Part shown: one piece after another, positions 7,361 through 52,731 of the stretch
Position numbering within the stretch: position 1 is the stretch's first letter
How the letters are laid out: each line of letters opens with the position of its first letter
NCBI GenBank assembly: GCA_034521025.1
Contig: JAXHMZ010000004.1
Location: 107,315 to 166,484, forward strand
Direction of reading: 5' to 3'
Origin: Candidatus Campbellbacteria bacterium
GTDB lineage: Bacteria > Patescibacteriota > Minisyncoccia > Phycocordibacterales > JAXHMZ01
Length of the DNA stretch: 59,170 nucleotides
The notes under the pieces: generated by a model
The model's input: only the letters and a program-made list of their open reading frames with translations
Databases searched by the model: none
Told to the model about the DNA's origin: nothing
Made by a program: the position numbers and the translations under genes

Positions 7361-7948
7361 ATGGCGACAACTGAGGAAATAAAAACATTACGAGAAAAGA
7401 CGGGTATTTCTGTGATGCAATGCAAAAAAGCCCTTGAAGAGGCAGGAGGAGACATGGATAAAGCCCTTATAATTCTCACAAAGAAGTCTGGTGATATAGT
7501 CTCAAAAAAGAGCGATAGAGAGCTCGGAGCAGGAGTTATAAAGGCGTATATACACGGAGGAGGAACTGTTGGAGCAATGGTGGAGCTTGATTCCGAGACT
7601 GACTTTGTCGCTAAACACGAAGATTTTGGCAAACTGGCATATGACATAGCAATGCATATAGCTGCCCAAAAGCCCACTTATCTCTCCCGAGAAGACGTGA
7701 AAGATGAAGATCTGGTAAAGGCAAAAGAGGTGTTCCAAGAAGAAGTGAAGGACAAACCTGAAGAGATGCAAGAAAAGATCCTTGAAGGCAAGATAGATTC
7801 ATACCTAAAAGAAAGGATATTGTTAGAGCAACCCTTTATCAAGGATATGGAAAAGACAGTCGGTGATCTTGTGAGTGAAGCTACGCAAAAATTCGGTGAA
7901 AAGGTAAAAATTGCCCGATACGAATGCTTTACGGTTCTTGGTGAATAA
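7361..7948 (+). CDS. tsf: Elongation factor Ts (short form)
   Basis: LREKTGISVMQCKKALEE and ETDFVAK motifs. Confidence 0.98.
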   Translation: MATTEEIKTLREKTGISVMQCKKALEEAGGDMDKALIILTKKSGDIVSKKSDRELGAGVIKAYIHGGGTVGAMVELDSETDFVAKHEDFGKLAYDIAMHIAAQKPTYLSREDVKDEDLVKAKEVFQEEVKDKPEEMQEKILEGKIDSYLKERILLEQPFIKDMEKTVGDLVSEATQKFGEKVKIARYECFTVLGE

Positions 7949-7972
7949 TTTATAATCGCTTTGAAATAGCGC

Positions 7973-7991
7973 GCCACCTTAGCTCAGTTGG
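7973..7991 (+). repeat. 19-bp copy of the tRNA-Thr 5' end
   Basis: GCCACCTTAGCTCAGTTGG identical to 8171-8189. Confidence 0.95.
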
Positions 7992-8170
7992 ATAAAACAG
8001 AAACTGCTTTCTGTTTTATCCGGTCCCGAACGCAGAGAGGGAACTTCCGTTGTTGAGCGCAGCGAAACAGGAAGTAGGAGGAAGAGTTTACTCTAGCGAC
8101 TGAGCGAATGTGATAAAATGTCCTAAGAAATATTGCATTAAACGGTTCGTACGATTAGAGTCAGAGTTGT
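7992..8170. mobile_element. Putative non-coding hairpin mini-element at the tRNA-Thr 5' end
   Basis: Bounded by 19-bp tRNA direct repeat; perfect 14-bp hairpin 7990-8021; stem-loops with GAACGCAGAGA (8028-8038) and GAGCGCAGCGA (8055-8065) loops. Confidence 0.55.
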
Positions 8171-8243
8171 GCCACCTTAGCTCAGTTGGTAGAGCATTCG
8201 CTTTGTAAGCGAGCGGTCGTCAGTTCGAGTCTGACAGGTGGCT
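8171..8243 (+). tRNA. tRNA-Thr (anticodon TGT), CCA not encoded
   Basis: Acceptor GCCACCT/AGGTGGC, D arm AGCTCAGTTGGTAGAGC, anticodon arm TTCGC-TTTGTAA-GCGAG, T arm GTCAG-TTCGAGT-CTGAC. Confidence 0.97.
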
Positions 8244-8244
8244 C

Positions 8245-8361
8245 ACGTAGTGAGGCAACAGAAAAAGCTCATTTATGAGCTTTTGTTCAGACGAGAAAAG
8301 TTTGAGCATGTCGTGCGGAGCGCAGCGAGCACGACGCGAAAACTATACAGAATCTGTAGGA
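8245..8361. mobile_element. Putative non-coding hairpin mini-element at the tRNA-Thr 3' end
   Basis: Bounded by 21-bp tRNA direct repeat; hairpins AAAAGCTCA-TTTA-TGAGCTTTT and GTCGTGC-(G)GAGCGCAGCGA-GCACGAC. Confidence 0.55.
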
Positions 8362-8384
8362 TTCGAGTCTGACAGGTGGCTCCA
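8362..8384 (+). repeat. Copy of the tRNA-Thr 3' end (att-like), ending in CCA
   Basis: TTCGAGTCTGACAGGTGGCTC identical to 8224-8244, followed by CA. Confidence 0.95.
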
Positions 8385-8404
8385 AAAGCCAAGTAAGATC
8401 ATAA

Positions 8405-8442
8405 AAATAAACGCTTCAATCTATAGATTGAAGCGTTTATTT
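8405..8442. repeat. 38-bp perfect palindrome with GCTTCAATCTATAGATTGAAGC core (terminator/REP-like)
   Basis: Perfect inverted repeat; the 22-bp core recurs at 30352-30373. Confidence 0.9.
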
Positions 8443-8511: not shown

Positions 8512-9252
8512 ATGCAAGAAAATGAGCATAATACAAAAGGACATCTCCATCCTTTTACTATCCTTTCGCGCAAATCTATAGATATATTAACAAAACTCGG
8601 TTTTGAAGTAGCTAGCGGACCAGAATTGGAATCCGAAGAATACAACTTTGACAAACTGAATGTGCCCAAAGATCATCCCTCGCGCGATATGCAAGATACT
8701 TTTTGGATCAAAGGAAGACCGGATCATGTTCTGCGTACTCACACATCTCCTGTGCAGGTTCGTTACATGCTTGAAAACGATCCGCCGTTGAAAGCGATCA
8801 CTATCGGTAGGGTTTATAGGAACGAGGCGACTGACGCGACGCACGAGGCTCAGTTTTACCAACTGGAGGGTCTGAGCGTGGCTGAAGGAGTAACTCTGGC
8901 GGATTTAAAGGCAACACTGAAATACTTTTTTGGCGAGCTCTTTGGTAATGATACAGAGGTGCGATTTCGTCCCAGCTTCTTTCCGTTTGTGGAACCGGGA
9001 GTAGAAGTAGATGTACGTTGTTTTAAATGTGTTGGTGCGGGCTGTGGACTTTGTAAGCACACAGGTTGGATCGAAATTATGGGCGCGGGTATGGTCCATC
9101 CAAATGTACTCGAAGCATCCGGAGTCGATTCTTCTAAATACACCGGCTTTGCATTCGGCGCCGGCTTTGATCGTATAGCTTCTTCTATTTTTCAAGTTCC
9201 GGATATAAGGTTGTTTTATTCAGCCGACTTGCGTTTTATTAATCAGTTTTAA
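8512..9252 (+). CDS. pheS: Phenylalanine-tRNA ligase alpha subunit (lacks N-terminal arm)
   Basis: HPSRDMQDTF, LRTHTSPVQ, RPSFFPFVEP, GFAFGAGFDR motifs. Confidence 0.98.
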   Translation: MQENEHNTKGHLHPFTILSRKSIDILTKLGFEVASGPELESEEYNFDKLNVPKDHPSRDMQDTFWIKGRPDHVLRTHTSPVQVRYMLENDPPLKAITIGRVYRNEATDATHEAQFYQLEGLSVAEGVTLADLKATLKYFFGELFGNDTEVRFRPSFFPFVEPGVEVDVRCFKCVGAGCGLCKHTGWIEIMGAGMVHPNVLEASGVDSSKYTGFAFGAGFDRIASSIFQVPDIRLFYSADLRFINQF

Positions 9253-11270: not shown

Positions 11271-13307
11271 ATGGCTAAAAAAGATACGAATAAACCCAGC
11301 TACGAGGCTAAAGACATCACAGTCTTAGAAGGTCTTGATCCGGTTCGAAAAAGACCTGGAATGTATATCGGAACAACCGGGCTTGATGGCCTTCATCATT
11401 TGGTTACCGAAATTTTTGACAATTCTCGTGACGAGGCGATGGCTGGAGAAGCGGATCACATAGAAATTGCTCTTCTGCCTGATAATTACGTGCGTATTGT
11501 AGACAACGGAAGAGGTATTCCGGTTGATAAGCACCCCAAAACAAAAGTTTCAGCCCTAGAGACGATCATGACCACGCTTCACGCCGGAGGAAAGTTCGGC
11601 GGAGGCGGATATAAAGTTTCAGGTGGGCTTCACGGAGTTGGGGCTTCTGTTGTTAACGCCTTGTCTGAAGAGATGTCCGTAACTGTACACAAAAATGGTA
11701 ATAGTTACATGCAGAGCTACGAAAGAGGTAAAAGAAAGGCGGCTCTGAAAAAATTAGGTAAAAGCGAATTCCAGGGATCAATAATTACATTCAAACCGGA
11801 CAAGGAAATATTTGAAGATATTAACCTTGATAGAGATAAGATCATCTCTCATATGCGCCAACAGGCATATCTGATAAAAGGTTTGAAAATATCAGTTATT
11901 GACGCCCGTGAATATGAAGGGAAGATAGATACTGATAAATTCTACTTGGAAGATCTGAGGTTAGACGTACCTTCGATGTCTTTCTTCTTTGAAGGCGGTC
12001 TCATTTCTTTGATCAAATTCTATAATCAACACCAGAAACCGGTACATAAAAATATTTTTTATGTTGAAAAAGAAGAAGGAGAGGTATCTGTTGAAATAGC
12101 ACTTCAGTACGTGGACGATATTTCTTCCAAAATTTTTCCATTCGCAAATACCATTTATAACGTTGAAGGTGGAATGCATGTCACGGGATTTAAGACAGCT
12201 TTGACTCGCACTCTTAATTCCTACGCCCGTAACAATAATCTATTAAAGGAATCTGACGATAATTTTACCGGCGAAGATGTATTGGAAGGACTTACCGTTG
12301 TAGTGTCTGTAAAGATGCCGGAAATCCAATTTGAAGGTCAAACCAAAGCAAAGCTGGGATCACCAGAAGCACGTGGAGCGGTTGAGGCAATATTTTCTGA
12401 AAACTTTTCCAGTTTTTTGGAGGAAAATCCCGACGACGGAAAAGCAATTATAAACAAAGTCCTGTTAGCACTAAGAGCTAGAAAAGCTGCCAAAGCCGCT
12501 AAAGACAGTATATTGCGTAAGGGTGCCTTAGAAGGAGTTACTCTGCCCGGCAAATTGGCTGATTGCCAGACAAGGAAAGCCGAAGAAAGTGAGTTGTTTA
12601 TAGTAGAGGGTGATTCTGCCGGTGGTACCGCAAAAGCGGGACGCGATCGCCGAACTCAGGCAATTTTGCCTTTACGCGGAAAAATACTAAATGTGGAGCG
12701 AGCTCGACTGGATAGAATGCTCGGATCTAACGAAATCAAGTCATTGGTTTTGGCTTTAGGTACGGCAATTGGGGAGACATTTAATTTAGAAAAACTTCGC
12801 TACCATAAAATAATCATAGCAACAGACGCTGATGTCGATGGAGCGCATATCAGGACTTTGATACTAACGCTTTTCTATAGATATTTCAGGCCAATAATTG
12901 AAGGTGGATATTTGTATATCGCTCAGCCGCCTCTATACAAAGTAACCCGAGGCAAGGAATCTCACTTCTTTTACACAGAAGCGGCTAAAGATGACTTTTT
13001 CGCGTCACTAGGCGAAGATGTCGAAGAGATCGAAGAAGTTCAGAATAATGAAAACAATTCGGAAGATAATTCTCCTAAACAGAAAAAGTCCAAATACAGT
13101 ATACAAAGATACAAGGGTCTTGGTGAGATGAACGCTGACCAGCTGTGGGAGACGACGATGGACCCAGAGGCAAGGGTATTGAAACAAGTAGAAATAGACG
13201 ACGCGCAAGAAGCAGATCAGATCTTCGGCATCCTTATGGGCACGGATGTTAGCGCAAGAAAATCCTTCATTCAGTCAAACGCAAAAGACGCAACACTAGA
13301 TCTCTAG
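11271..13307 (+). CDS. gyrB: DNA gyrase subunit B
   Basis: EGLDPVRKRPGMYIG, GGLHGVGASVVNALS, EGDSAGG, IATDADVDGAHI, QRYKGLGEMN. Confidence 0.97.
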   Translation: MAKKDTNKPSYEAKDITVLEGLDPVRKRPGMYIGTTGLDGLHHLVTEIFDNSRDEAMAGEADHIEIALLPDNYVRIVDNGRGIPVDKHPKTKVSALETIMTTLHAGGKFGGGGYKVSGGLHGVGASVVNALSEEMSVTVHKNGNSYMQSYERGKRKAALKKLGKSEFQGSIITFKPDKEIFEDINLDRDKIISHMRQQAYLIKGLKISVIDAREYEGKIDTDKFYLEDLRLDVPSMSFFFEGGLISLIKFYNQHQKPVHKNIFYVEKEEGEVSVEIALQYVDDISSKIFPFANTIYNVEGGMHVTGFKTALTRTLNSYARNNNLLKESDDNFTGEDVLEGLTVVVSVKMPEIQFEGQTKAKLGSPEARGAVEAIFSENFSSFLEENPDDGKAIINKVLLALRARKAAKAAKDSILRKGALEGVTLPGKLADCQTRKAEESELFIVEGDSAGGTAKAGRDRRTQAILPLRGKILNVERARLDRMLGSNEIKSLVLALGTAIGETFNLEKLRYHKIIIATDADVDGAHIRTLILTLFYRYFRPIIEGGYLYIAQPPLYKVTRGKESHFFYTEAAKDDFFASLGEDVEEIEEVQNNENNSEDNSPKQKKSKYSIQRYKGLGEMNADQLWETTMDPEARVLKQVEIDDAQEADQIFGILMGTDVSARKSFIQSNAKDATLDL

Positions 13308-13328: not shown

Positions 13329-13365
13329 AAAACCCCGCGTAGCTATTGCAGCGCGGGGTTTTATT
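13329..13365 (+). terminator. Intrinsic terminator after gyrB
   Basis: AAAACCCCGCG-loop-CGCGGGGTTTT. Confidence 0.8.
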
Positions 13366-13524
13366 GCCGACGTAGTGCGAGAGGAATACCAAGGCGAAGC
13401 CTTGAGTATTTCCGAGCCGAGGAGAGCAATATGAGGTTTAATACCCCGCCCCTCTGGGGCGGTCAAAGGGTGAGCGAAGCGAACACCCTTTGAGTCCAGG
13501 GCTTGCCCTGGGGTTTAATACCGA
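13366..13524. mobile_element. 159-bp multi-hairpin REP/MITE-like element, copy 1, flanked by TTATT
   Basis: Two substitutions versus 47713-47871; four hairpins; internal 11-bp direct repeat GGTTTAATACC. Confidence 0.85.
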
Positions 13525-13549
13525 TTATTTGTTCTTTGGTTTTGAGTAA

Positions 13550-29689: not shown

Positions 29690-30349
29690 ATGAATTTTCA
29701 CATAATAACAGCATTTCCAAAAATGATCTCTCCTGTACTCGAGGAATCGATGTTGAAAAGAGCTATTAAGTCCGGATTAATAAACGTAAAGATCTACGAC
29801 CTACGTGATCATAGTCATAACAAGCATAAAAAGATCGACTCTCGACCATACGGTGGTGGTCCGGGTATGGTTCTTGGTGCGGAGCCAATATTGAGAGCCC
29901 ACAAAGAAGCAAAAGGGAGGAAGAAAAAAACTCTGACCATTCTACTAACTCCAAACGGCAAGCAGTTCAACAATAAGTACGCTAAAGACCTTTCTCGAAA
30001 ATATAAAGATATAATTATAATTTGTGGCCATTATGAAGGAATTGACGCGAGAGTTGAAAAGATATTAAAGCCAGTAAAATTATCAATCGGTCCATTTATA
30101 CTCACGGGGGGAGAATTAGCCGCTTTGGCCATAGTAGATAGCACTTCACGCTACCTACCGGGGGTGCTTGGAAACGAAAATTCTCTTGAAGAAACACGTT
30201 ACGCGACCGATCAAGTATATACTCGACCCGAGAAATTAAAATGGAAGGATAAAAATTACAAAGTTCCTGATGTGCTTTTGACCGGCCATCACAAAAATAT
30301 AGAGGAGTGGCATAAAAAGCAAAATGAAAAGAGAAATAAAGAAAGCTAA
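29690..30349 (+). CDS. trmD: tRNA (guanine-N1)-methyltransferase
   Basis: RPYGGGPGMV, CGHYEGID, LTGGELAAL, LLTGHH. Confidence 0.97.
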   Translation: MNFHIITAFPKMISPVLEESMLKRAIKSGLINVKIYDLRDHSHNKHKKIDSRPYGGGPGMVLGAEPILRAHKEAKGRKKKTLTILLTPNGKQFNNKYAKDLSRKYKDIIIICGHYEGIDARVEKILKPVKLSIGPFILTGGELAALAIVDSTSRYLPGVLGNENSLEETRYATDQVYTRPEKLKWKDKNYKVPDVLLTGHHKNIEEWHKKQNEKRNKES

Positions 30350-30380
30350 ATGCTTCAATCTATAGATTGAAGCATTTAGC
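30345..30380. repeat. 36-bp perfect palindrome with GCTTCAATCTATAGATTGAAGC core
   Basis: Same 22-bp core as 8413-8434, different self-complementary flanks. Confidence 0.9.
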
Positions 30381-40395: not shown

Positions 40396-43318
40396 ATGAC
40401 CCAAAACGCATATAAACAAGCGTTAGCAAAGCTCAATACGGCGCAACGAGCGGCCGTAGAAACAATAGAAGGACCGGTAGTCGTAGTAGCTGGTCCGGGA
40501 ACCGGAAAAACACATGTCTTAACAACACGCATAGCTCACATTTTGCACGAAACAGACTCTACGCCCGATTCAATATTGGCCTTGACTTTTACCGAAGCCG
40601 GAGCTAGCGCTATGCAACTTCGCTTGTATGAACTTATCGGCAAAGACGCGTACAAAACCCAAATTGCAACTTTTCATGGGTTCGCAAACCAAATTATCCA
40701 AGAATTTCCTGAGTACTTCCCGCGTATCATAGGAGCAAGACAGGTTGATTCCTTAGAACGACTCGAATTAATTGAAAAGATCCTCACAGAAGGCAATTTT
40801 GAGCTTCTAAAGCCCTTCGGAAACGAACTCTTCTATGTAAAAAGCATATCTCAGGTAATACAAGACATTAAAAGAGAAGGGTATGATCCTCATAAATTCG
40901 AAAACTTAATAAAAGAGCAGTCAAAAGATTTTGGATCGATCGAAGATCTTTATCATTCAAAAGGAAAAAATGAAGGTGAGATGAAAGGGAAATACAAAGT
41001 CCTTGAAAGAAAGATAGAGAAGAACTTTGAATTACTTCAAGTTTTTCGCGAGTATGAACGCATAAAGCAAGAACAAAAACTTTTTGATTACGAAGATACT
41101 ATTCTTGAGTTACTGTACGCTTTGGAAAATGAAGATGATCTACTTTCAGCTCTTCAAGAGAGATATTTATATATACTTGCTGATGAACATCAAGATTCAA
41201 ACCGCGCGCAAAACAAAATACTAGATCATATCTCGAGTTTTCATGAAAACCCCAATATTTTTATAGTAGGAGACGACAAACAGGCTATATACAGATTTCA
41301 AGGGGCATCACTCGAAAACTTTCAGTATTTCTTTAAACCGGCACCCCGAAGCGACTACAATTGAACTTACCGAGAATTATAGGTCCTCCCAACATATTCT
41401 TGATATCTCACAAGACCTGATATCAAACAATCCGACCCTCAGTGAAAAAACACTGATTGCCGCTACAGACCGCGAGAATATAGACACACTTCTTTTTTCT
41501 TCAAACAATGAAACAGAAGAGGCTCATACAGTTGCGACTGAAATAAGATCTATTCAAAATAACTCTCCTGAAGACACGATCGCTGTACTGTTTAGAAATA
41601 ACAAAGAAGCTCAAGATCTGAGTTTGGCTCTAGAGAGGCAGGGAATTGATTATTTTAAAAGATCCGGCTCAACAGAAGAAATGGATCCTTATACAGAGCA
41701 GTTACTTACTCTCTTGTCCATAGTTGACCACCCAACTGATGAAAACATTGGCAAAGCTTTATTCTTTGACTGCTTTGGTATAGACGCATTAGATATAGCT
41801 GACTTTTTGAAAAGTATCAGGAAAGAAGAAAAAACCATTAGAGACTTAGTAAAAGAGTTGCCAACTAATTCAGAGATAAATGAGTCGATTGAAAAACTCT
41901 TTGAACTCCATAAGTATTCTCACAATCATAGTTTTTTTGATACTTTTGAAAAAACCTTAAAAGAAACTGGCTTACTTGAAAGTATATTGAAGTCAGAGAG
42001 AAGTAGGGTAATTATTGAAGAAATACAAACACTATACGAAAGAGCCAAGACTCTTGAAAGTAGGGAAGAGAGTATTACTTTGGATTCTTTCCTTTCCTAT
42101 ATTACTAAAGCACGTGAATATAATGCGTTACAACTGCACACAAAAGAAACCAAGGAAGAAAAAGTTATACTATCCACCGTGCATGGTGTAAAAGGACTCG
42201 AATACGACGTTGTTTTCGTTACAGGATTAGAGGATAAGCGATGGGGAGGTAAAAGGAAACCGGAATATTTTTATCTTCCGGAATTAAAAGCCCTAAAGGT
42301 TGGCGAGGAAGGAAATATTAAAGAGGACGAGAGGCGTCTCTTATATGTTGCTATTACGCGCGCCAGAAAAAAGGCCATTCTTTCTTATCCAAGATCAAAT
42401 TCAGAAGGACGAAAATATTTACCCTCTCAGTTTCTCGATGAGCTTGGACTGAGCGAAAACAAGGGTCCCGAGGTCAGCACTTATATAGATCAGGAAAGAT
42501 TTAGTCCGTCACGAAAGCTTTTGGATAAAGACCTGGTGGAATTTCTCTTTCGGAAGCAAGGCCTAAATCCGACTGCCGTCAACAAATATCTTGCCTGTCC
42601 CTGGGAGTACTTTTTTTTGACATTGATGCGACTTCCACAGCCACCAAATAGGAGCGCTGTATTTGGAACAGCAGTACATAAAACTCTTCAAGAATTCTTT
42701 GATGAAAGAACGAAGAAAAATGACCTTAGCATAACTGAGGTGCTCGCATTAATGGAAAGAGAAATAAAAAGCTCACACTTAGAAGCCCTAGACAAAGAAA
42801 AGCTGATCAAACGTGGAAATGAATTCCTGCCTGGATTTATAGAAGAAGGTAGAAAAAGATGGCAGAGAGAAAGCGAGACAGAAAGATATATTAAACAACC
42901 GCTGGAGACAACTAATGGTAATTTATTACTTTCCGGTAAATTAGATAAGATCGATAGAGATGAAGGGAGTGAAGGCTTGATAGTAACAGACTTCAAAACC
43001 GGCGAACCCAAGTCGAGAAATAATATAGAAGGAGAGACCAAAGACTCTAACGGTGACTATAAACGTCAGCTCGTATTTTACTCGCTTTTGCTAGAGCTTA
43101 ACGGCGAGAAAATGAAAGAAGGGATCATTGATTTTGTAAAACCCAACAAAAGCGGTAAATATAAACACGAACGATTTTCTATCAGCAAAGAAGAAAGGGC
43201 AGAGCTAAAAAATCAAATAGAGAGGATCTCTTCTGAGATCCTCTCTATGGAATTCACACAAAAAGGTTGTGATAAAAAGGATTGCGAGTGGTGCCGCCTG
43301 GCAAACCTTTTGCTGTAG
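40396..43318 (+). CDS. UvrD/PcrA-family helicase with C-terminal PD-(D/E)XK (RecB-like) nuclease; single gene frameshifted at ~41338
   Basis: AGPGTGKT, ADEHQD, GDDKQAIYRFQGA; shifted frame RHPEATTIELTENYRS; STVHGVKGLEY, RRLLYVAITRA; nuclease GKLDKID..DFKTG..QLVFY. Confidence 0.88.
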
Positions 43319-43324
43319 TTGTAA

Positions 43325-44126
43325 CTAGTTCAGCTCGATAAGTCTGTCTATGATAGCAGCTAAAGGTTCTTCTGGAATTGCTCCGCTAATTCCCACGGCA
43401 TTACCACCTTCAGAAAACACGGCCAAACTTCCGGCCTCAGGTCCCAACTGCGTTAGAGTATTGTATATATCATCCCTAGCGTCCTCTGTGATCTCCGCAT
43501 CACTTATAAGTAGGCTATATGGCGTTCCGGTACCTCCGGCGTTTTGAGCGTCCTCCAAATGTGCTTCCACGATAGACAACGTCTCTTCATTGGCAAAACA
43601 ACTTTCAAACTCCTCCACGTTGGCTCCCGCGTCTTGCGCAAATTCAGGCAACAGATCATGATCCAATCCATCGTTGGAAGGAGTTTCTTCATAGATCCTA
43701 TCGATAAAGGTCCAGAAACCTTCTTCTCCGGCTGACTGAGCTACACACTCAGAAGCAACAGCTTCCGGAATTGCTTTCTGGTGAAGTTGCTCTAGAGGGA
43801 AGTGTCTATATACCCAAGCAAATTCACCTTCGTCATAGTTTTCTATTAAATTGTTCAAAGTATCATGATGTCGCTTGCAGAATGGACATTCCAAGTCAGA
43901 ATAATCAACGAGCTTTACGGGAGCGTCTAGACTTCCTCGAATATAATCAGTTGAATCTACTGATTCATATGAAATGGAAGAGATGGTCGGGCCACTAGAA
44001 CCGGGATCTACCTGCTGATGAATCGTTGTTATCGTTTACAAAGATTATAGCGCCCGCCGTCAGCGCACCGATCAAAAGACCGGCAACTATGATCGAAATT
44101 GGTAAAAAAAGATTTGAAGATTTCAT
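43325..44126 (-). CDS. DsbA/thioredoxin-like protein, left-arm copy with frameshift near 44005
   Basis: CPFC motif; mirror of intact 56287-57087. Confidence 0.85.
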
Positions 44127-44189
44127 ATATTTTTATGCTTTGTTTTGCTCTATGCTCTGCGTATTTCTAATATGACCAGTCTATCATAT

Positions 44190-44763
44190 TTAAAAGGGAA
44201 GAGTATGGGTAACCGTAGAATCGAGTGGTTTGTCCCAATCCGAGACATCTATAGGAATATTACGCAATCCATCATTTGATCGGAATTTCACGTACCCGTT
44301 TTCCTTTATAAAATCATACACGGCTTTGGTAACTCTTACATCTTGCTCACAGTACTCGCGAAGCTTCTCTAATTCTCCGTTGTTCCACCACTCAATGGCT
44401 TCCAAGCCATGTCCGCTCTTGCGGTGCCCTAGAGTGGCCTCGGCAATAGCGTCTAACCCAATTCTTCGTCCTAAGGAATTCTTGATCGACTCCAAGAGAT
44501 CTATGCTTTTGAACTCAGCTCAGATCTCCCGGTAATATTCATCGAGAATGGGAATATCAAAGTGCATTTGAATTAAAGCCGATAGATGCGTTGACTTCTG
44601 AGTACTGGCCAAGCTTGGATAGATCTTCTTCAAAATAACTAGAAAACTCTTCGGTCTCTGTATCGTGAATTGATACCAGTGACAGATCAAGCATAGACGG
44701 CTCGCGACCACCCACATCAGCAAAAGTATTCTTCGTTTCTATATCAAACGTGACCAATCTCAT
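44190..44763 (-). CDS. RNase H-like (DEDD/YprB-type) 3'-5' exonuclease, left-arm copy garbled ~44520-44610
   Basis: VTFDIET, YCEQDV; mirror of intact 55648-56223. Confidence 0.8.
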
Positions 44764-44765
44764 AC

Positions 44766-46017
44766 TTAAACTTCTCTTTTATAAATAGCGACGACCTCCT
44801 CCAAACTTTTTTGGCCGAGTGTTTTTCCGTACTCATCCTTTAGGATCAACTTATCGGAATTAAATGCTTCTTCGTCTACAACTAGAGCAAATTTAGATCC
44901 ATATTTCTTCGATCGCTTCAACTGCGAATCGATTGTATCATAACGCATGTCAACTACAGTTCTTATCCCATTTTTACGCAAGCGCGTCGCAACGTTGTCG
45001 GCGTATACTTTATATTGTCTGTCCGAAACACAAACGTAAATATCAGTAAATGAAATTTCTTTTGGTAAGAGATCATAAGTTTCCAGTACGTCACGAATTG
45101 TGACATCGCCCATACCAAAACCTACGGCAGATACAGGTTCTTCACCAAATACCTCTAAAAGATCGTCGTAACGCCCACCACCAAAAAGAGATCGGCTGTT
45201 ATCGGGATTTGTATCAAATATTTCAAAAATTACCCCGGTATAATAATCAAAACCGCGTACCAAATATGGTTTGAATTTTACGTTATTTATCCCTCGCGCA
45301 CTAAGTTCTTCGATAAGTTGATCGATCCTTTCGTTCGCTTCGAGACCTACCAATAGGTCGCCACCTATCAACTCATTTAGCTTCTCATCAAAATCATCAA
45401 TTTTATCTTTCTTGTCCAACAGTCTATACACCGCCTGTTTCTTTTTTGGATCAAGCTCTAATTCCTCGAATTTATCTTCGAGAATACTTCTATCGTTTAT
45501 GTATATTTCATATTGATCTTCCTTCAAGCCAAATCTTTTTAGAAGTTCATTCGCCAGATCAATTATCTCGATTTCGGCATCTATACCATCTATGCCAAAC
45601 AGATCGGCGTTAAGCTGATAATGCTCACGCAGGCGACCGCGTTGCGGGCGTTCATAACGAAATACATTAGGAATCGAAAACAAGCGCTGAGGAAAAGCCA
45701 TCGCCTTACGCCTTGAAGCAATCATACGCGCGACCGTGGGTGTCATTTCCGGTCGAAGAGTTACGTTTCTACCGCCACGATCCATGAATGTGTAAGTTTG
45801 CTCGCTTACTATTTCCTCGCTGGTTTTGTCCGTATATAACTCGCTGTATTCTAAAGGAGAAGCGTTGTATTCCTTGTATCCGAACAAAGTCAGCGGTTGA
45901 GCGCATTATGTCAAAGATATAGTTTTGTATAGCTTGTTCTTCAGGATAAAAGTCACGCACTCCTTTGTAACTTTCCGTAGTAACGTTTTTAGATACCTTG
46001 CTTTTTTCCTCAGACAT
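44766..46017 (-). CDS. hisS: Histidine-tRNA ligase, left-arm copy with +1 frameshift near 45895
   Basis: LRPEMTPTVAR, RYERPQRGRLREHYQ, LVRGFDYY, GGGRYD. Confidence 0.93.
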
Positions 46018-46038
46018 TGGAAATATTGTACCAAAGTG

Positions 46039-46794
46039 ATGGAAAAATACGAGAACAAAAATATGATTCTAGCTGAAAAAAGCACAGGCGAGACAATGGG
46101 GCAATTAAGGCAGCGGGTTTTCTCTGAATTAAGTCTAGACCCGAACACTAAACTGACGTTTGCCGGCCGTCTAGATCCACTCGCAAGCGGTGTGGTCGTT
46201 TTTCTCCTCAATGAAAGAAGATTTCAAAAAGATGAGTTTCTGTCTCTGAATAAATCCTACAGCTTTCAGATCATACTTGGATTAAAAACTGACACCGGAG
46301 ACCCCTTGGGATTGATTGAATGTGTGGATTTCTCTAGAAAGATCGAGGAAGCTGAAGTTATAAATACTCTTAAAAAATTTGAGAGTAAATACAGACAAAA
46401 GTATCCGAAATTTTCATCAAGAAAAGTAGACGGGAGGGCCTTGTTTGAACACACGCGAAACCAAAACGAAGTAAAAATTCCAGATCATGAAATTGAAATA
46501 TTTGCTCTGAGTCTACAAAAAACCCGAGAAATTAAAAAAGAAGATCTTTTAGATAATATATTTACTCTGATTAGAAAAGTTGAAGGAGATTTTAGGCAAG
46601 AGAAAATAATCAAAAGGTGGCAAGAGATCGAAAATGACATACCAAATAAAGTTCAAGTGCTAGATTGTAATGTTGAATGCTCCAGTGGAACTTATGTACG
46701 CGTATTAACGGAAGATATAGCTAAAGAGTTAAACACTGTCGCGACAACACAAAACATACATCGCAGTAAGATTGGACATTTACAAACCAAATAA
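46039..46794 (+). CDS. TruB-like pseudouridine synthase, divergent and without PUA domain (true start likely 46039)
   Basis: FAGRLDPLASG with catalytic Asp, TDTGD, PKFSSRKVDG, CSSGTYVR. Confidence 0.8.
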   Translation: MEKYENKNMILAEKSTGETMGQLRQRVFSELSLDPNTKLTFAGRLDPLASGVVVFLLNERRFQKDEFLSLNKSYSFQIILGLKTDTGDPLGLIECVDFSRKIEEAEVINTLKKFESKYRQKYPKFSSRKVDGRALFEHTRNQNEVKIPDHEIEIFALSLQKTREIKKEDLLDNIFTLIRKVEGDFRQEKIIKRWQEIENDIPNKVQVLDCNVECSSGTYVRVLTEDIAKELNTVATTQNIHRSKIGHLQTK

Positions 46795-46864
46795 TTATTG
46801 TATTGTTGCATTAGTACTCTGATCTTTAAGACACCGAATACACACACTACCGAAAGGAGCGGAA

Positions 46865-47680
46865 ATGATCCATATCCCGGGAGTTCCAGGGAAGATCAAT
46901 GAGATCAAGGAGTATCCGTTTTCAATTGGAAACTTGGTAGTCAACGCGCTTGGTAAACCAACAGATTGGAAGGGAGAACTTGAAAATCTTCACGACCAAA
47001 CGACCTACAACCGCCTCCTCTCTATAGCCAGAGAGCTGGGCGCAACTAGGATCTTTTGTCCATACCCTGTCCACGGTACGACCATTTCAAGCTCCAAGAT
47101 CAAAACACTTGATGTTTCCCGCACCAAAAGAAGGATCTACCGTGAAGTTAAGGCAGATGGAGCCGAAATTGATAAAGAGGAGGCTTACGGGCTCGCTTCC
47201 GGCGATTGCCACACAGTAGCCCTACAAGACCCGGTTACGGGAAAAACAATTGCTATTCACTTCAATCGTGAAAACGGAGTAGATGACGACATTCTTTCCA
47301 AGGCTCTTCGACACTTCAGGAAGGGAAGTGCTGAAAGGCTAATTGCCGTAATTACTCTCGGCATCGACTCTGCTCACTTTAAACACGATTGGGAAAACCA
47401 TAAGCATGGAAAGAAGAATCGTCGACGTACCTGTGAGTTGATAGGAAAGTACGGACCTGAGATAGTAGATTGGCCCTTAGGCGAGGGCAAAATCGACCTC
47501 AGGCGAATCGCAGCGAGGAAGTTGGTTGAAGCAGGTCTGCTACCCTCAAACATCTACGCGGACCTTTTCGACACCTACTTTGATCCTAGGTTCTGGAGTC
47601 ACCGCGCTAGTCAAACCAGAGGTAGTGCCAAATTCGGTGAAAAGGGAAGAAACATGGTTCTTGTTGTTAACAAGGGCTGA
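46865..47680 (+). CDS. YfiH/PgeF (laccase-domain) family protein, divergent
   Basis: VHG, ADG, GDC, AIH, FWSHR, GRNMV motif order. Confidence 0.7.
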   Translation: MIHIPGVPGKINEIKEYPFSIGNLVVNALGKPTDWKGELENLHDQTTYNRLLSIARELGATRIFCPYPVHGTTISSSKIKTLDVSRTKRRIYREVKADGAEIDKEEAYGLASGDCHTVALQDPVTGKTIAIHFNRENGVDDDILSKALRHFRKGSAERLIAVITLGIDSAHFKHDWENHKHGKKNRRRTCELIGKYGPEIVDWPLGEGKIDLRRIAARKLVEAGLLPSNIYADLFDTYFDPRFWSHRASQTRGSAKFGEKGRNMVLVVNKG

Positions 47681-47712
47681 GGACGGTTCCTTGGAACCGT
47701 CCTCTTTTTATT
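47679..47712 (+). terminator. Intrinsic terminator after YfiH-like gene
   Basis: GAGGACGGTTCC..AACCGTCCTC followed by TTTTT. Confidence 0.8.
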
Positions 47713-47871
47713 GCCGACGTAGAGCGAGAGGAATACCAAGGCGAAGCCTTGAGTATTTCCGAGCCGAGGAGAGCAATATGAGGTTTAATACCCCGCCCCT
47801 CTGGGGCGGTCAAAGGGTGAGCGAAGCGAACACCCTTTGGGTCCAGGGCTTGCCCTGGGGTTTAATACCGA
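47713..47871. mobile_element. 159-bp multi-hairpin element, copy 2, flanked by TTATT
   Basis: Near-identical to 13366-13524. Confidence 0.85.
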
Positions 47872-47874
47872 TTA

Positions 47875-48343
47875 TTAGCTAGCATTTAAATCAGAAGTGC
47901 AGTTGGGACACCGCGTTGCCGACTTGTGGATCAACTCATAGCAAAAAGGACACTTTGATACAGTCTCTTCGGATTTATTTACATTAGTATCTTTACTTTC
48001 ACGTAATCGGTTTACGGCTTTTACCAAAATAAAGACAGCAAAAGCCGTGATCAGAAAACTCACTGACTGATTAATAAATTCTCCGTAATTGATCGTTATA
48101 GCACCCGCAGCTTCCGCTTCTGCCAGAGTGGAGAAGTCAACGCCTGAAGAAAGGTTAACAAAAAGATTTGAAAAATCAGCTCCACCGACCAACATTCCAA
48201 CCGGAGGCATTATTATGTCTTCCACTATCGAGTGGACGAGCGAATTAAACGCTGCGCCGATCACTATACCGACTGCCAAATCAGACCACGCTACCCCTTC
48301 AGGCGCGTACTCGTTTGAAATCATTTACAGGAACGCCCCTCAT
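47875..48343 (-). CDS. mscL: Large-conductance mechanosensitive channel, left-arm copy with garbled 5' end
   Basis: DLAVGIVIGAAF, YGEFIN; mirror of intact 52084-52545. Confidence 0.88.
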
Positions 48344-48401
48344 ATTGTCAGTATATTATACACAAAAATATCATTACTTTATATGATATACTCGCTATTT
48401 G

Positions 48402-49088
48402 ATGGAAAAAGACAGACCAGACGAGCCTGCACAGGCAAAAATAGTTAGAGAAAGAGTTGAAGAAGAAGCAAATAGGCGAGTCTCGCTTATAGGCAACGAA
48501 TTCGCGAAAGGTTTCGACGTAATTAGAGACTATCCCAAATCCGTAACTTTTTTTGGTTCCTCTCGTCTCTCTGAGTCACACCCATATTACAAAAAAGCTC
48601 AAGAAGTTGCCCACCGCTTATCAGATGACGGGTTTACCGTGGTAACCGGCGGCGGCCCGGGCATAATGGAGGCGGCCAATCGTGGCGCATTTGAGGCAGG
48701 AGGAGACTCTTTGGGATTCAATATTGAACTGCCATTTGAGCAAGTTATTAATAAGTACGTTACAGAATCTCTTTCTTTTAATTACTTCTTTTCACGAAAA
48801 GTAATGCTTGCTTTCTCAGCGGAAGCCTATATTTACTTTCCTGGAGGATTCGGAACTCTGGATGAATTTTTTGAAATTGTAACTTTGGTTCAAACGCAGA
48901 AGATCCCGCGAGTACCAATAATTCTTGTCGGTGATGAATTCTGGGGAGCTTTGGATGATTTTATTCACAATATGTTGGTGAACAAATATCAAACTATCGG
49001 CCCGGGAGACGAAGAGCTGTACACAATGACAGAAGATATAGATGAAATTTCTAAAATAGTCAAAAACGCGCCTAAGCGTAAGGAATAA
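48402..49088 (+). CDS. LOG/TIGR00730-family Rossmann-fold protein
   Basis: TGGGPGIMEAANRGA, YFFSRKVM, PGGFGTLDE. Confidence 0.92.
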   Translation: MEKDRPDEPAQAKIVRERVEEEANRRVSLIGNEFAKGFDVIRDYPKSVTFFGSSRLSESHPYYKKAQEVAHRLSDDGFTVVTGGGPGIMEAANRGAFEAGGDSLGFNIELPFEQVINKYVTESLSFNYFFSRKVMLAFSAEAYIYFPGGFGTLDEFFEIVTLVQTQKIPRVPIILVGDEFWGALDDFIHNMLVNKYQTIGPGDEELYTMTEDIDEISKIVKNAPKRKE

Positions 49089-49123
49089 ACAAAAAACCGC
49101 TTTTGAGAAGCGGTTTTTTGTTT
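49087..49123. terminator. Bidirectional terminator
   Basis: AAACAAAAAACCGCTT-loop-AAGCGGTTTTTTGTTT. Confidence 0.85.
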
Positions 49124-49141
49124 TAGTTCTATATTATCTGC

Positions 49142-49640
49142 TTATCCTTTAACCTCAGGCAGGTCTACCGTAGTGGTAATTTGAACTCTGATCGCACTAC
49201 CACCTTCGGTTACTACTCGCTCGTCCTCGTCCTCTTCAAAGGTACCGTTTTCGTTTGTATCTGTGTACAGCTCTACGTAGTACTGATCTCCTTCGGATGT
49301 GGACTCATCAAGCTCTACATTACCCGTCAAATCCGTGTTCCAGCTTCCACAAAAGCAGAACCGATAACTTCTCCTGGCTCACCGTCTACTTTGTTTCTTA
49401 CAACGACAAAACCGTCTTCTGTAAGATTGAGACTGTCATAAAAACTACGTCTTCCGGGAATTTGATCGTTCACTATTACTGAATTTTCACTGTCCCCACT
49501 AACACTGTTAATTCTTCTTCATTTTGTTCTGGAGGGTTAACCTCTTCACTGCTAGGCCGTGTTAAAAGTAACGCAACCACCGCAACTACCAGCACAAGAA
49601 GTACCCCGACTGTTATGATAATTGATCTATTATTATTCAT
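49142..49640 (-). CDS. Membrane-anchored acidic surface protein (DUF7282-like), left-arm copy frameshifted
   Basis: Mirror of intact 50790-51287. Confidence 0.6.
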
Positions 49641-49683
49641 ATGCACACAGTATACAACAAAAACACCATTTACAACAATGGCC

Positions 49684-50220
49684 TTATATTAATCCCTTCT
49701 TAGCCAAAATCGCGGAAATAGGATCGGTGGACTTACCGCGAGCCGGACTAATTTCACGTCCGTACGCTTTAAGCTTATAAGAAATGTCAAACCATTCATC
49801 TTTGGGCCAAAGATCCATCAACTCTTCTCGACGATCTCGGGTCATTGGTATTGACCAGACCAAATTTTCTCGCCAATCGTATAACGTGCGTATCCACCGC
49901 AATTCCATCAACTTCGCCGAAAAGATGCCCGCGAACAACGTTGGCGGTCTTTCTGCCGACACCGGGTAGGGAGGTACAGTTCTTCCATACTACTTTTGGA
50001 ATTCTTGCTTTAAATTTATTCTTGATAATACGAGCCGAGTCACGAATGTACTTTGCTTTAGCTCGGCTAAACCCGATTTCTAAAATATCCTTTCGCAGAT
50101 CCTCGACGGAGGCCTCAGCGAACTTGTTTAAATGTGTGTATTTTTTTAAATAATTTTTCCGTAACCTGATCTACTTTTTTGTCCGTAGTTTGAGCCGATA
50201 AATGACCCCGCAAAAAGAAG
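49684..50220 (-). pseudogene. nth: Endonuclease III, 5'-truncated at the fold-back point and frameshifted (left-arm copy)
   Basis: Corrected reading LLFAVILSAQTTDKKV..GVGRKTANVV..AVDTHV. Confidence 0.85.
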
Positions 50221-50236
50221 TTCGTGGTTTTAAGTA

Positions 50237-50746
50237 TATCGGCTAAAACTACAGACAAAGAGAAATCAGGTAAGAAAAAATTGTAAAAAATACAACACAT
50301 TAAACAAGTTCGCTGAGGCCTCCGTAGAGGATCTGCGAAAGGATATTTTAGAAATCGGGTTTAGCCGAGCTAAAGCAAAGTACATTCGTGACTCGGCTCG
50401 TATTATCAAGAATAAATTTAAAGCAAGAATTCCAAAGAGTATGGAAGACCTTACTTTTCTACCCGGAGTTGGCAGAAAGACCGCCAACGTTGTTCGAGGT
50501 CATCTTTTTGGTGAAGTTGATGGAATTGCAGTGGATACGCACGTTCTGCGATTGGCGAGAAAATTTGGTCTGGTCAATACCAATGACCCCGAGATCGTCG
50601 AGAGAGAGTTGATGTATCTTTGGCCTAAAGATGAATGGTTTGACATTTCTTATAAGCTTAAAGCGTACGGACGTGAAATTAGTCCGGCTCGCGGTAAGTC
50701 CACCGATCCTATTTCCGCGATTTTGGCTAAGAAGGGATTAATATAA
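50237..50746 (+). pseudogene. nth: Endonuclease III, 5'-truncated (right-arm copy)
   Basis: HhH LPGVGRKTANVV and VDTHV intact; start missing. Confidence 0.85.
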
Positions 50747-50789
50747 GGCCATTGTTGTAAATGGTGTTTTTGTTGTATACTGTGTGCAT

Positions 50790-51287
50790 ATGAATAATAA
50801 TAGATCAATTATCATAACAGTCGGGGTACTTCTTGTGCTGGTAGTTGCGGTGGTTGCGTTACTTTTAACACGGCCTAGCAGTGAAGAGGTTAACCCTCCA
50901 GAACAAAATGAAGAAGAATTTAACAGCGTTAGTGGGGACAGTGAAAATTCAGTAATAGTGAACGATCAAATTCCCGGAGACGTAGTTTTTTATGACAGTC
51001 TCAATCTTACAGAAGACGGTTTTGTTGTTGTAAGAAATGAAGTAGACAGTGAGCCCGGAGAAGTTATCGGTTCTGCTTTTGTGGAGGCCGGTACAGATAT
51101 GACGGGTAATGTAGAGCTTGATGAGTCCACATCCGAAGGAGATCAATACTACGTAGAGCTGTACACAGACACAAACGAAAACGGTACCTTTGAAGAGGAC
51201 GAGGACGAGCGAGTAGTAACCGAAGGTGGTAGTGCGATCAGAGTTCAAATTACCACTACGGTAGACCTGCCTGAGGTTAAAGGATAA
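50790..51287 (+). CDS. Membrane-anchored acidic surface protein, DUF7282-like
   Basis: N-terminal TM; VNDQ..DGFVVV..PGEVIG..DTNENGTFE (DxDxDG-like) pattern. Confidence 0.6.
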   Translation: MNNNRSIIITVGVLLVLVVAVVALLLTRPSSEEVNPPEQNEEEFNSVSGDSENSVIVNDQIPGDVVFYDSLNLTEDGFVVVRNEVDSEPGEVIGSAFVEAGTDMTGNVELDESTSEGDQYYVELYTDTNENGTFEEDEDERVVTEGGSAIRVQITTTVDLPEVKG

Positions 51288-51305
51288 GCAGATAATATAG
51301 AACTA

Positions 51306-51342
51306 AAACAAAAAACCGCTTCTCAAAAGCGGTTTTTTGTTT
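51306..51342. terminator. Bidirectional terminator (mirror copy)
   Basis: Reverse complement of 49087-49123. Confidence 0.8.
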
Positions 51343-52027
51343 ATTCCTTACGCTTAGGCGCGTTTTTGACTATTTTAGAAATTTCATCTATATCTTCTGT
51401 CATTGTGTACAGCTCTTCGTCTTCTGGGCCGATAGTTTGATATTTGTTCACCAACATATTGTGAATAAAATCATCCAAAGCTCCCCAGAATTCATCACCG
51501 ACAAGAATTATTGGTACTCGCGGGATCTTCTGCGTTTGAACCAAAGTTACAATTTCAAAAAATTCATCCAGAGTTCCGAATCCGCCGGGGAAATAAATAT
51601 AGGCTTCCGCTGAGAAAGCAAGCATTACTTTTCGTGAAAAGAAGTAATTAAAAGAAAGAGATTTTGTAACATACTTATTAATAACTTGCTCAAATGGCAG
51701 TTCAATACTGAATCCCAAAGAGTCTCCTCCTGCCTCAAATGCGCCACGATTGGCCGCCTCCATTATGCCTGGGCCGCCGCCGGTTACCACGGTAAACCCG
51801 TCATCGGATAAGCGGTGGGCAACTTCTTGAGCTTTTTTGTAATATGGGTGTGACTCAGAGAGACGAGAGGAACCAAAGAAAGTTACGGATTTGGGATAGT
51901 CTCTAATTACGTCGAAACCTTTCGCGAATTCGTTGCCTATAAGCGAGACTCGCCTATTTGCTTCTTCTTCAACTCTTTCTCTAACTATTTTTGCCTGTGC
52001 AGGCTCGTCTGGTCTGTCTTTTTCCAT
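51341..52027 (-). CDS. LOG/TIGR00730-family protein (mirror copy)
   Basis: Same motifs as 48402-49088. Confidence 0.9.
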   Translation of the reverse strand: MEKDRPDEPAQAKIVRERVEEEANRRVSLIGNEFAKGFDVIRDYPKSVTFFGSSRLSESHPYYKKAQEVAHRLSDDGFTVVTGGGPGIMEAANRGAFEAGGDSLGFSIELPFEQVINKYVTKSLSFNYFFSRKVMLAFSAEAYIYFPGGFGTLDEFFEIVTLVQTQKIPRVPIILVGDEFWGALDDFIHNMLVNKYQTIGPEDEELYTMTEDIDEISKIVKNAPKRKE

Positions 52028-52083
52028 AATAGCGAGTATATCATATAAAATAATTATATTTTTGTGTATAATATACTGACAAT

Positions 52084-52545: not shown

Positions 52546-52548
52546 TAA

Positions 52549-52699: not shown

Positions 52700-52731
52700 A
52701 ATAAAAAGAGGACGGTTCCAAGGAACCGTCC

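Follow-up and report, generated by a model that had tools for sequence, protein, structure and literature searches.

Hairpin-rich inserts duplicating both ends of a tRNA-Thr gene suggest a Patescibacteria-wide class of miniature insertion elements

Why should a transfer RNA (tRNA) gene be flanked by spare copies of both of its own ends? The question is raised by a stretch of 59,170 nucleotides from a Candidatus Campbellbacteria bacterium (contig JAXHMZ010000004.1; the whole stretch analysed is called the window here), in which tRNA-Thr(UGU) at 8171-8243 on the forward strand was the only tRNA found by ARAGORN and Rfam. This gene lies between tsf (7361-7948) and pheS (8512-9252) within the run rpsB-tsf-tRNA-pheS-pheT-gyrB and does not encode its CCA end; ARAGORN called it as tRNA-Thr(tgt) at 8171-8244, and the Rfam tRNA model matched 8171-8243 with 68.8 bits. 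Comparison of PheS and EF-Ts placed the host in the Patescibacteria/Paceibacterota (Candidate Phyla Radiation, CPR), with PheS 73% identical to the best genome relative and about 62% identical to Yonathbacteria. Look-ups of the exact EF-Ts and PheS proteins of the window turned up no record. The answer that we favour, with some reserve, is that two miniature non-coding insertion elements sit at opposite ends of the tRNA, that each has rebuilt the gene end which it interrupted, and that both belong to a broad class found throughout the Patescibacteria. The upstream element (U) would extend over about 7992-8170 and the downstream element (D) over about 8245-8361.

The 5' repeat (GCCACCTTAGCTCAGTTGG, 19 nt, exact) occurs at 7973-7991 and again at the start of the tRNA (8171-8189) with 179 bp in between, and the 3' repeat (TTCGAGTCTGACAGGTGGCTC, 21 nt, exact) at 8224-8244 and 8362-8382 with 117 bp in between, all on the forward strand, as are the features of U and D described below. 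The orphan 5' fragment corresponds to tRNA positions 1-19, i.e. the 5' strand of the acceptor stem and the D-arm into the D-loop. At the other end, the gene-side copy reaches from the T-loop to the discriminator plus one nucleotide, and the orphan 3' fragment (8362-8384) consists of the exact repeat, from the T-loop to the discriminator, then CA, giving it a CCA end. GGCTCCA was found only in this distal copy, whereas the gene copy reads GGCTCACG and is followed by ACGTAG. No further copies of the two repeats were present in the 59 kb at up to three mismatches, and the chance expectation was low, with 0 matches in 100 shuffles. Hairpins capped by GAGCGCAGCGA occur in both inserts, at 8055-8065 upstream and 8318-8328 downstream. 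An earlier note, made from the letters alone, had already reported the order of 19-bp copy, 179 bp, tRNA-Thr, about 117 bp and 21-bp copy plus CA, the CCA on the displaced fragment only, and the hairpin-dense inserts with shared loops, and each of these observations held. Weak resemblances of 7956-7973 to the anticodon arm and of 8155-8175 to the tRNA 3' end were at chance level and were dismissed. The two outer fragments can pair in the minimum-free-energy fold; a two-piece tRNA-like or transfer-messenger RNA (tmRNA)-like molecule composed of them was nevertheless rejected, as most relatives have only one fragment. ARAGORN found no tmRNA.

Such a layout could be an assembly artefact produced from collapsed or chimeric tRNA repeats, and a suspicious 16.7-kb self-complementary stretch elsewhere in the window, together with the breaking of unitigs by the repeated module of U, might be taken in this sense. 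The locus was, however, recovered independently from a salt-pan metagenome run which holds the host organism (X1, word depth about 25): the Logan unitigs of this run, a separate assembly, were exact across 7944-8002, 8076-8157, 8128-8244, 8215-8344, 8315-8375 and 8346-8434. Because these unitigs span every junction, mis-assembly is unlikely here, and the same layout was found in many unrelated assemblies. An artefact, which the earlier note had listed as one way in which its interpretation could fall, has a negligible probability in our judgement.

Upstream of the tRNA, a promoter-like site (TTTACG-17-TATAAT, score 10/12) follows directly after tsf at 7928-7956, with its TATAAT at 7951-7956 ahead of the orphan 5' fragment, and relatives carry TTGATA-17-TA(A/G)AAT at this place. 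Judging from its sequence this is probably the native tRNA promoter, which now feeds the orphan. From the orphan (positions 1-19) onwards, U consists of three hairpins, a purine-rich stretch, a copy of the tRNA 5' region in inverted orientation (X') and a 58-nt single-copy spacer leading into the tRNA. Hairpin 1 (7990-8021) has a perfect 14-bp stem, hairpin 2 (8024-8042; TCCC...GGGA) varies between copies, with variants present in X1, and hairpin 3 (8044-8074), recognised in the sequence and the predicted fold, bears the GAGCGCAGCGA cap as a GNA-triloop mini-hairpin. The purine-rich stretch TAGGAGGAAGAG (8075-8090) lies at the peak of X1 depth and is the part of U with the highest copy number. 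The inverted copy X' at 8091-8112, a feature absent from the earlier note, agreed with the reverse complement of the tRNA at 18/22 positions, better than 2000/2000 shuffles (p < 0.0005); in its extended form (8082-8112) it is 74% complementary to 8173-8203 and covers tRNA positions 3-33. The spacer (8113-8170) has an X1 depth of 24-36. As to the two promoter motifs that had been pointed out around the insert, both are present and the TATAAT stands within the 10/12 site, but the TG-extended TAAAAT (TGATAAAAT, 8111-8119, inside the insert) has no -35 element, and the promoter scan called no promoter there. Reading through the insert from the predicted native promoter would be enough to express the tRNA.

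U is a multi-copy sequence. The module at 7980-8105 had a summed word depth in X1 of 180-780, compared with about 25 in flanking single-copy DNA (roughly 10-30x), and this depth is the sum of many sequence variants, each near single-copy depth. It climbs at 7978-80 and drops at 8102-06, where the acceptor-specific parts of the direct and the inverted tRNA pieces start, and these acceptor-stem parts would be the portions specific to each tRNA. Other copies of U in X1 lead, after a different spacer of about 65 nt, into tRNAs with the anticodon loops TTTATAA and TTTACAC, and other left flanks end in other acceptor-like strings, e.g. CCGCCCA followed by TAGCTCAG, which fits tRNA-Ile(UAU), a tRNA starting with CCGCCC in these bacteria. 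A sister strain of lower depth in X1 has a short U made of orphan, hairpin 1 and 31 nt before the tRNA, and short elements sharing the first hairpin were found in another Paceibacterota clade (loci L052, L068, L075 and L080; fetched loci carry L numbers). A scan of metagenome contigs with the U motif GGAGGAAGAGTTTACTCTAG gave 0 matches, the scanned collection evidently lacking this genus.

D begins directly after the tRNA with an ACGTAGT mini-hairpin with a GNA triloop (8245-8251), which corresponds to the hairpin tip of related elements. Then follow hairpin 1 (8263-8284; a perfect 10-bp stem with a compensatory G:C to T:A change in the homologues of L081, L086 and L089), a conserved segment (8285-8309; GTTCAGACGAGAAAAGTTTGAGCATGT, aligned with its homologue CGGGTGAGAAGGGGTTGAGTATGT in relatives), hairpin 2 (8310-8335; sequence and predicted fold, with the GAGCGCAGCGA cap mentioned above) and a conserved right end (8337-8361; CGAAAAC..GAATCTGTAGGA, aligned with CGAAACC..GAATCTGTAAGA of L089), which had an X1 depth of 3-4x baseline. 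The sequence of the segment at 8285-8309 suggests that it may be a degenerate inverted T-arm, and we infer an inverted copy in D because D is homologous to the insert of L089, which keeps an exact 11-nt reverse complement.

Do related genomes carry the same inserts? Among 80 fetched pheS loci, tRNA-Thr(UGU) was found upstream of pheS in 47, and at least 13 pheS loci have their own tRNA 5' end copied upstream and/or 3' end copied downstream, despite tRNA sequences that differ between species. In genus-level relatives, fetched through EF-Ts homologues (76-84% identical), the tsf-pheS spacer measured 271-574 bp versus 563 bp in the window. Homologues of U were found in L086 and L087, and the purine-rich stretch is identical in both; the copy in L086 is 77% identical over about 145 nt, its orphan has two mismatches, its hairpin 1 shows an A:T to G:C change that is compensatory, and its TAGGAGGAAGAGTTTACTCTAGC stretch is identical to that of the window. 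In L089 and L090 the tRNA is followed by tandem units, each of an approximately 125-nt D homologue plus a 23-nt orphan (homology score to the D of the window 87, null maximum 58), and L081 and L086 have kept most of D without a recognisable orphan. When U and D were compared by BLAST with the window and all loci, U was detected in L086 and L087 only and D, weakly, in L088-L090 only. L085 (4092-4362) has neither element, its tRNA-Thr lying between tsf and pheS on the opposite strand, and in Yonathbacteria the orthologous tRNA-pheS spacer is empty in L004 and filled in L002 and L036. Empty sites (e.g. L004), for which the earlier note had proposed to look, and decayed inserts exist in relatives, and with homologues and many copies at hand the inserts are not the unique sequences that would have contradicted it.

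The relatives also showed that these loci recombine. L086 (4092-4628) and L087 (3150-3789) have identical EF-Ts and diverge after U, which leads to tRNA-Thr(UGU) and pheS in L086 and to a second orphan 5' fragment, tRNA-Thr(CGU) and an ung-like gene in L087; this indicates a rearrangement between two element-bearing tRNA-Thr loci. The orphans of the window and of L089 differ at three positions, which are the same three at which their tRNAs differ, so that the copies were either homogenised with their tRNA or inserted separately.

A much more widespread downstream family came to light through three pheS loci which share GGGAAAACCGTGGGTTTCCC in their downstream inserts. With this 20-mer as the query, at least 120 matches were obtained in metagenome contigs. 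Their common part of about 75 nt, which we call the Gw core, has the order GGGGTCGGG-hairpin A-CCCGTGGAGGAAGGAAT-GGGAAAACCGTGGGTTTCCC-AG, with hairpin B before the final AG. Among the matches listed, the Gw core is located 75-135 nt downstream of tRNAs that represent 17 amino-acid types, and it has the orientation of the tRNA in all but one scored case; some contigs carry two copies at different targets. Ahead of each core, 8-24 nt form the exact reverse complement of the local T-loop, T-stem and acceptor, and the loop between the tRNA and this inverted copy is very often a GNA-triloop mini-hairpin. After each core stands a direct copy of the local 3' end of up to 25 nt, mostly starting from tRNA position 57-61, and in several copies only the orphan has the CCA, as in the window. 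The loop caps ACGAAGT, GCGAAGC and ACGTAGT show R:Y covariation, the last of them being the one in the window (8245-8251), and hairpin A has AU to GC swaps at several pairs, with 64/64 sequences paired.

The Gw core is not restricted to tRNAs. Seven copies among the matches listed follow rpmG, the gene for ribosomal protein L33 (L094, L131, L136, L137, L142, L152 and L155). At these sites the last approximately 45 nt including the stop codon are duplicated, so that the orphan keeps the end of the frame (...HKEAKK*), and the inverted copy complements the loop and the 3' stem of a 5-bp hairpin inside the gene near the stop codon. It therefore seems that what these sites share as a target is a terminal stem-loop and not the tRNA as such. 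Some Gw cores further hold a nested palindrome of 16-20 nt (CCTGCCGGCAGGCAGG).

As separate observations on these copies, the palindrome CCTGCC(T)GCCGGCAGGCAGG (16-20 nt) was nested in the cores of L109, L110, L125, L140 and L148 and in the tRNA-Leu orphan of L136, and a 9-nt AGCGAAGCG insert was found in some orphan T-loops. Together the two suggest a still smaller class of inserted hairpins.

How common is the arrangement, and is it tied to the correct side of the gene? We surveyed 197 distinct tRNAs with adequate flanks from all fetched loci, frequencies that are biased because sampling went through a fixed 20-mer and through the pheS and tsf neighbourhoods. The 3' end was copied downstream of 49 tRNAs, the 5' end upstream of 12, and an inverted copy lay downstream of nine; the wrong-side controls gave 0, 0, 0 and 4, the four being downstream copies of the 5' end. 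As 18 of the 49 cases at the 3' end lacked the 20-mer core, several core families must exist. Five tRNAs, that of the window included, were bracketed on both sides, which answers the earlier suggestion that such layouts be sought elsewhere.

From all copies a common design can be drawn. The downstream type consists of the gene end X, a loop, the inverted X', a hairpin core and the orphan X, and the upstream type is its mirror image. Duplications measured 8-45 nt across copies and always spanned the stretch from the stem-loop to the gene end. U shows all parts of this design; D shows the gene end, the GNA cap, its two hairpins, the conserved right end and the CCA-bearing orphan, and has the inverted copy by homology to L089 only. 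This looks like a Patescibacteria-wide class of gene-end-duplicating hairpin mini-elements which is largely undescribed. A literature search returned no description of such elements, and Rfam 15 gave the tRNA as the sole match above gathering score at the locus, also when searched permissively; matches elsewhere in the locus were weak, fell mostly over a palindrome at 8405-8442 and were all below gathering scores. On nine Gw-core loci Rfam 15 found nothing but tRNA. The earlier proposal of two small, non-autonomous elements of an undescribed class that leave the gene intact thus gained support from the relatives, the multi-copy U, the Gw family and the side-specific copies.

The main alternative is that these sequences are RNA devices which serve the host, either as structured leaders or trailers that guide tRNA processing, act in termination or affect stability, or as decoys and sponges that capture factors binding to tRNA. 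In that case, pairing of the inverted copy with the tRNA end would work as a switch, and spread would occur through gene conversion, not selfishly. Words of the Gw core were found in runs from freshwater, groundwater, soil, sludge, permafrost and drinking water, and the core is present in RNA, seen in contigs without strand information: in a wastewater metatranscriptome its depth (L093, 510-569; runs X38 and X30) was about 2600, compared with 100-370 on the tRNA, and in a 20x larger groundwater DNA run it was about 235. Besides this abundance, a role as RNA could explain the preservation of hairpins through compensatory changes, the retention of U and D across genus-level divergence, predicted folds that are far stabler than those of shuffled sequence (z -4 to -7) and in which the inverted piece is able to pair with the orphan or the real tRNA, and the purine-rich, single-stranded and Shine-Dalgarno-like GGAGGAAG conserved both in the U of the window (TAGGAGGAAGAG, 8075-8086) and in the unrelated-looking Gw core (GTGGAGGAAGGAAT, L093, about 520-535). 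GGAGGAAG is followed by NTG in the Gw core with no conserved open reading frame (ORF); a coding reading (Shine-Dalgarno-like GGAGG plus NTG GGA AAA CCG...) was rejected because the nucleotides themselves are conserved, third positions included, and because the frame is lost across junction variants. No exon-exon joint was seen in the RNA contigs, a weak test. A search for an RNA run of the host organism itself found none.

Several features fit such a service less well. Even close relatives share the inserts only patchily, some copies being decayed and some sites empty, the Gw core stands at unrelated targets, among them a protein gene's end and positions that follow terminators, there are tandem copies and tiny palindromes nested within cores, and the orphan copies have no obvious role as RNA. 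GNA-triloop caps, which are a hallmark of DNA hairpins, point in the same direction, and the RNA signal, coming from unstranded contigs, might also reflect co-transcription with the tRNAs or DNA carry-over. A purely host-serving RNA is thus rather unlikely in our view, and a use as RNA need not exclude mobility. Shared cores at unrelated targets, patchy distribution, decayed, tandem and nested copies and a high copy number all fit insertion elements.

If the inserts are mobile, what moves them? Direct repeats of the tRNA 3' end that start in the T-loop are reportedly the classic signature of integrase elements, and by this token the inserts might be decayed islands or prophages of tyrosine integrases, resembling the relics of cis-mobilisable elements (CIMEs), in which little filler is left between attL and attR. 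The 21-nt exact repeat at 8224-8244 and 8362-8382 is of this kind, the orphan keeps the CCA and the native downstream sequence, and tandem units such as those of L089 arise at attachment (att) repeats. The sizes are, however, tightly kept at about 100-180 nt with structured cores common to different tRNAs, which random decay would not yield. Every well-preserved copy has an inverted copy of the target that att sites do not need, 5' ends are duplicated as well, no integrase was found in the window or beside about 120 related copies among the matches listed, and viral contigs contained no related sequence (0 matches with two core motifs). Relics of integrase elements are therefore improbable, and the analogy to such elements drawn in the earlier note was not supported, since no recombinase was found and every copy carries the extra inverted piece. 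An origin without any element, by local template switching of replication at the palindromic D- and T-arms with filler in between, is more improbable still. Two switches at an inverted repeat would give the order X, X', X, and the inverted tRNA of L085 and the tRNA-Thr rearrangement of L087 show that the locus recombines, but purely local events fail because the cores are conserved in sequence and structure over many loci and hosts and are multi-copy.

In the search for a partner enzyme, none of the 38 window ORFs scanned matched an integrase, transposase (including Y1_Tnp of the HUH type), reverse transcriptase or homing nuclease in Pfam, the matches being to housekeeping families or lacking altogether, and the inserts have no protein-coding capacity. 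ORF clustering within 3.5 kb of 83 Gw cores found no recurrent recombinase or other enzyme gene and mainly housekeeping genes; small GIY-YIG ORFs lay 0.5-3.5 kb from cores in five loci, and tblastn found none in the window. The GNA-capped hairpins and the GTAG after the tRNA may hint at repetitive extragenic palindromes (REP), or their hairpin-forming doublets (REPINs), with REP-associated tyrosine transposases (RAYT), or at the palindrome-associated transposable elements (PATEs) of IS200/IS605.

Small GIY-YIG genes (about 81-113 aa; PF01541 confirmed for two) were also noted in L136, L127, L121, L167, L159, L055 and L064, each bracketed by its own short inverted repeats. In L136 such a gene (PF01541) stands between a 27-nt tRNA-Leu 5' fragment and an intact tRNA-Leu(caa) at about 11421-11505, numbered on the strand of the 20-mer, and L136 thus shows that a fragment-tRNA layout can hold a nuclease gene. 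We do not claim GIY-YIG as the partner enzyme, as the genes other than that of L136 are not adjacent to cores and none is in the window. Of the enzymes that the earlier note had proposed to look for, integrase and transposase were not found among the window ORFs scanned or the core neighbourhoods, and GIY-YIG turned up within a fragment-tRNA layout though not next to cores.

Comparison with the nearest known systems showed shared features each time, and yet the elements appear to fail a defining feature of each. Like tyrosine-integrase elements and CIMEs they insert at tRNAs, provide a replacement 3' end from the T-loop, leave an orphan direct repeat and can accrete in tandem; unlike these, they measure 100-180 nt, have no integrase nearby, use one core at many tRNAs and a protein gene, add an inverted copy of the target and include a mirror-image class which duplicates the 5' end. 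[quoted passage not shown] Their ends are, however, copies of the local target (8-25 nt) and not element-specific terminal inverted repeats, their direct duplication starts at a hairpin loop and has the size of a gene end (16-45 nt) in place of a short, fixed target-site duplication, and no RAYT, TnpA or other partner was seen among the window ORFs and core neighbourhoods.

Mobile introns and homing endonuclease genes (group I and archaeal bulge-helix-bulge) similarly occupy conserved loops of RNA genes without harm and can use flanking exons as homology arms in homing; here we found no ribozyme match and no spliced joint, and the gene is kept through duplication of the 'exon'. Integron attC sites are likewise imperfect palindromes in which a folded single strand recreates the duplex recombination site, and single-strand exchange of this kind would give the order X-loop-X'-core-X, but IntI, attI and cassette ORFs are missing and the hairpin arms derive from the target. 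Similarity to the Mauriceville retroplasmid of Neurospora, which integrates at mitochondrial tRNAs, and to retroviral primer-binding sites lies in sequence that derives from, or is complementary to, about 18 nt of the tRNA 3' end, in repeats that start just past position 58 and in orphans which in some cases have a CCA absent from the gene; on the other hand, no reverse transcriptase is linked, the direct and inverted copies stand in an order other than that predicted by simple template switching, and tRNA features are missing at the rpmG targets. Rickettsia palindromic elements, of about 100-150 nt and also from reduced genomes, insert harmlessly within genes including RNA genes, but they are tolerated in frame or in loops without duplication of the gene end. 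Casposons, with Cas1-type insertion at tRNA 3' ends, have 14-15-bp target-site duplications, terminal inverted repeats, Cas1 and a polymerase, whereas the repeats here are of variable length, the elements are of about 100 nt and no such genes were found.

The direction of the event (i.e. whether the inner or the outer copy is native), the way in which recombination occurred and the enzyme that took part can only be inferred, and a possible course would be as follows. An element would interrupt a gene inside or next to its terminal stem-loop, which in U would be the D-arm, in D the T-arm and in relatives the 5-bp rpmG hairpin, and the gene would stay whole because the element carries its own copy of the segment up to the gene end. 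The native end would be displaced outwards as the orphan, giving a promoter-proximal 5' fragment on one side and a CCA-bearing 3' fragment with the terminator on the other. Co-transcribed with the tRNA and removed by ordinary 5' and 3' tRNA processing, the element would act like an intron that needs no splicing. It might spread through recombination between element-borne and chromosomal copies of the gene end. A single crossover of a small circular or folded single-stranded form would yield exactly the observed order, with the X-loop-X' hairpin recreating a duplex target as attC sites of integrons do. Alternatively, repair-type copying could take its homology arms from the tRNA body and the orphan, a plausible course for CPR bacteria that are naturally competent. 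An enzyme acting in trans might assist, and gene conversion may keep the copies matched to the local tRNA. Models of reverse transcription (tRNA-primed synthesis, template switching) were discarded, as by our reasoning they predict an order of copies different from that observed.

A bolder version, which we regard as possible yet doubtful, is a new mobile element: an enzyme-less 'spliceless intron' of about 100-180 nt that homes into the loops of terminal stem-loops of genes, namely the D- and T-arms of tRNAs and the hairpin at the rpmG end, the target-matched X-loop-X' serving, as single-stranded DNA or RNA, as both guide and attachment site. Because it copies the gene end in this tentative scenario, the host gene would at no time require repair or splicing, and the abundant transcript may itself be the active agent, as a guide or an RNA resembling a ribozyme. 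We take the elements to be non-autonomous insertion elements whose mechanism may well be categorically new.

Several observations weigh against mobility and explain our reserve, the sampling bias of the survey being one of them. About 60 inspected copies all matched their own tRNA, with no intermediate bearing the ends of another tRNA seen, and mobility would require a route by which inverted and direct copies are matched to each new target. The abundance of the core in RNA and its strong sequence conservation would also fit an RNA of use to the host. In the window itself, the inverted T-arm of D was not significant in a shuffle test on the window alone, and the left part of D is single-copy in X1. 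Both U and D date back at least to the split from L086 and L089 and might thus be old fixtures instead of active elements. Finally, no same-species empty allele, excised form or circle junction was seen in the Logan X1 data, from which rare variants are dropped.

Provided that the inserts are insertion elements, the tRNA genes of the smallest bacterial genomes would be routinely colonised from both ends by non-coding parasites, whose solution to the problem of doing no harm would have no described counterpart among MITEs, introns or integrase islands. That both the direct and the inverted copies match their target implies either some copying when the element inserts or a very efficient local conversion, each of which would be mechanistically new. 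In practical terms, the orphan tRNA fragments confuse annotation, the elements break assemblies at tRNA loci, and their repeats drive rearrangements such as the inverted tRNA of L085 and the tRNA-Thr exchange of L087. If the alternative of a host RNA were true, the Gw core would be a structured RNA, abundant and unclassified, in a major uncultured phylum.

Other repeats were noted in the window. The 38-bp perfect palindrome AAATAAACGCTTCAATCTATAGATTGAAGCGTTTATTT at 8405-8442 (not assigned to a strand), with a further occurrence at 30345-30380, is a likely terminator of the locus. Its word depth in X1 was about 1200 compared with a baseline of about 25, and it is therefore a very high-copy REP-like hairpin.

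At its right end, over approximately 18.5 kb (40716-59170, with a centre near 50205), the window forms a giant inverted duplication. The segment 41888-58523 is its own reverse complement at 96.8% identity, 58524-59170 mirrors 41361-40716, and the Cu-oxidase_4, MscL and LOG genes each have a mirror-image second copy. The X1 depth fell to zero over 49986-50129 and over 50238-50290, and a unitig connects 50142 with 50291 on opposite strands; as the X1 unitigs fail to support the centre of the duplication, it is possibly a fold-back assembly chimera of two strains.

A dispersed, hairpin-rich repeat of about 170 bp lies right after terminator hairpins at 13359-13529, 47706-47876 and 52544-52706. 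It begins with ATTGCCGACGTAG, similar to the tRNA trailer ACGTAGTGAG, and contains GCGAAGC-capped hairpins including GAGCGAAGCGA.

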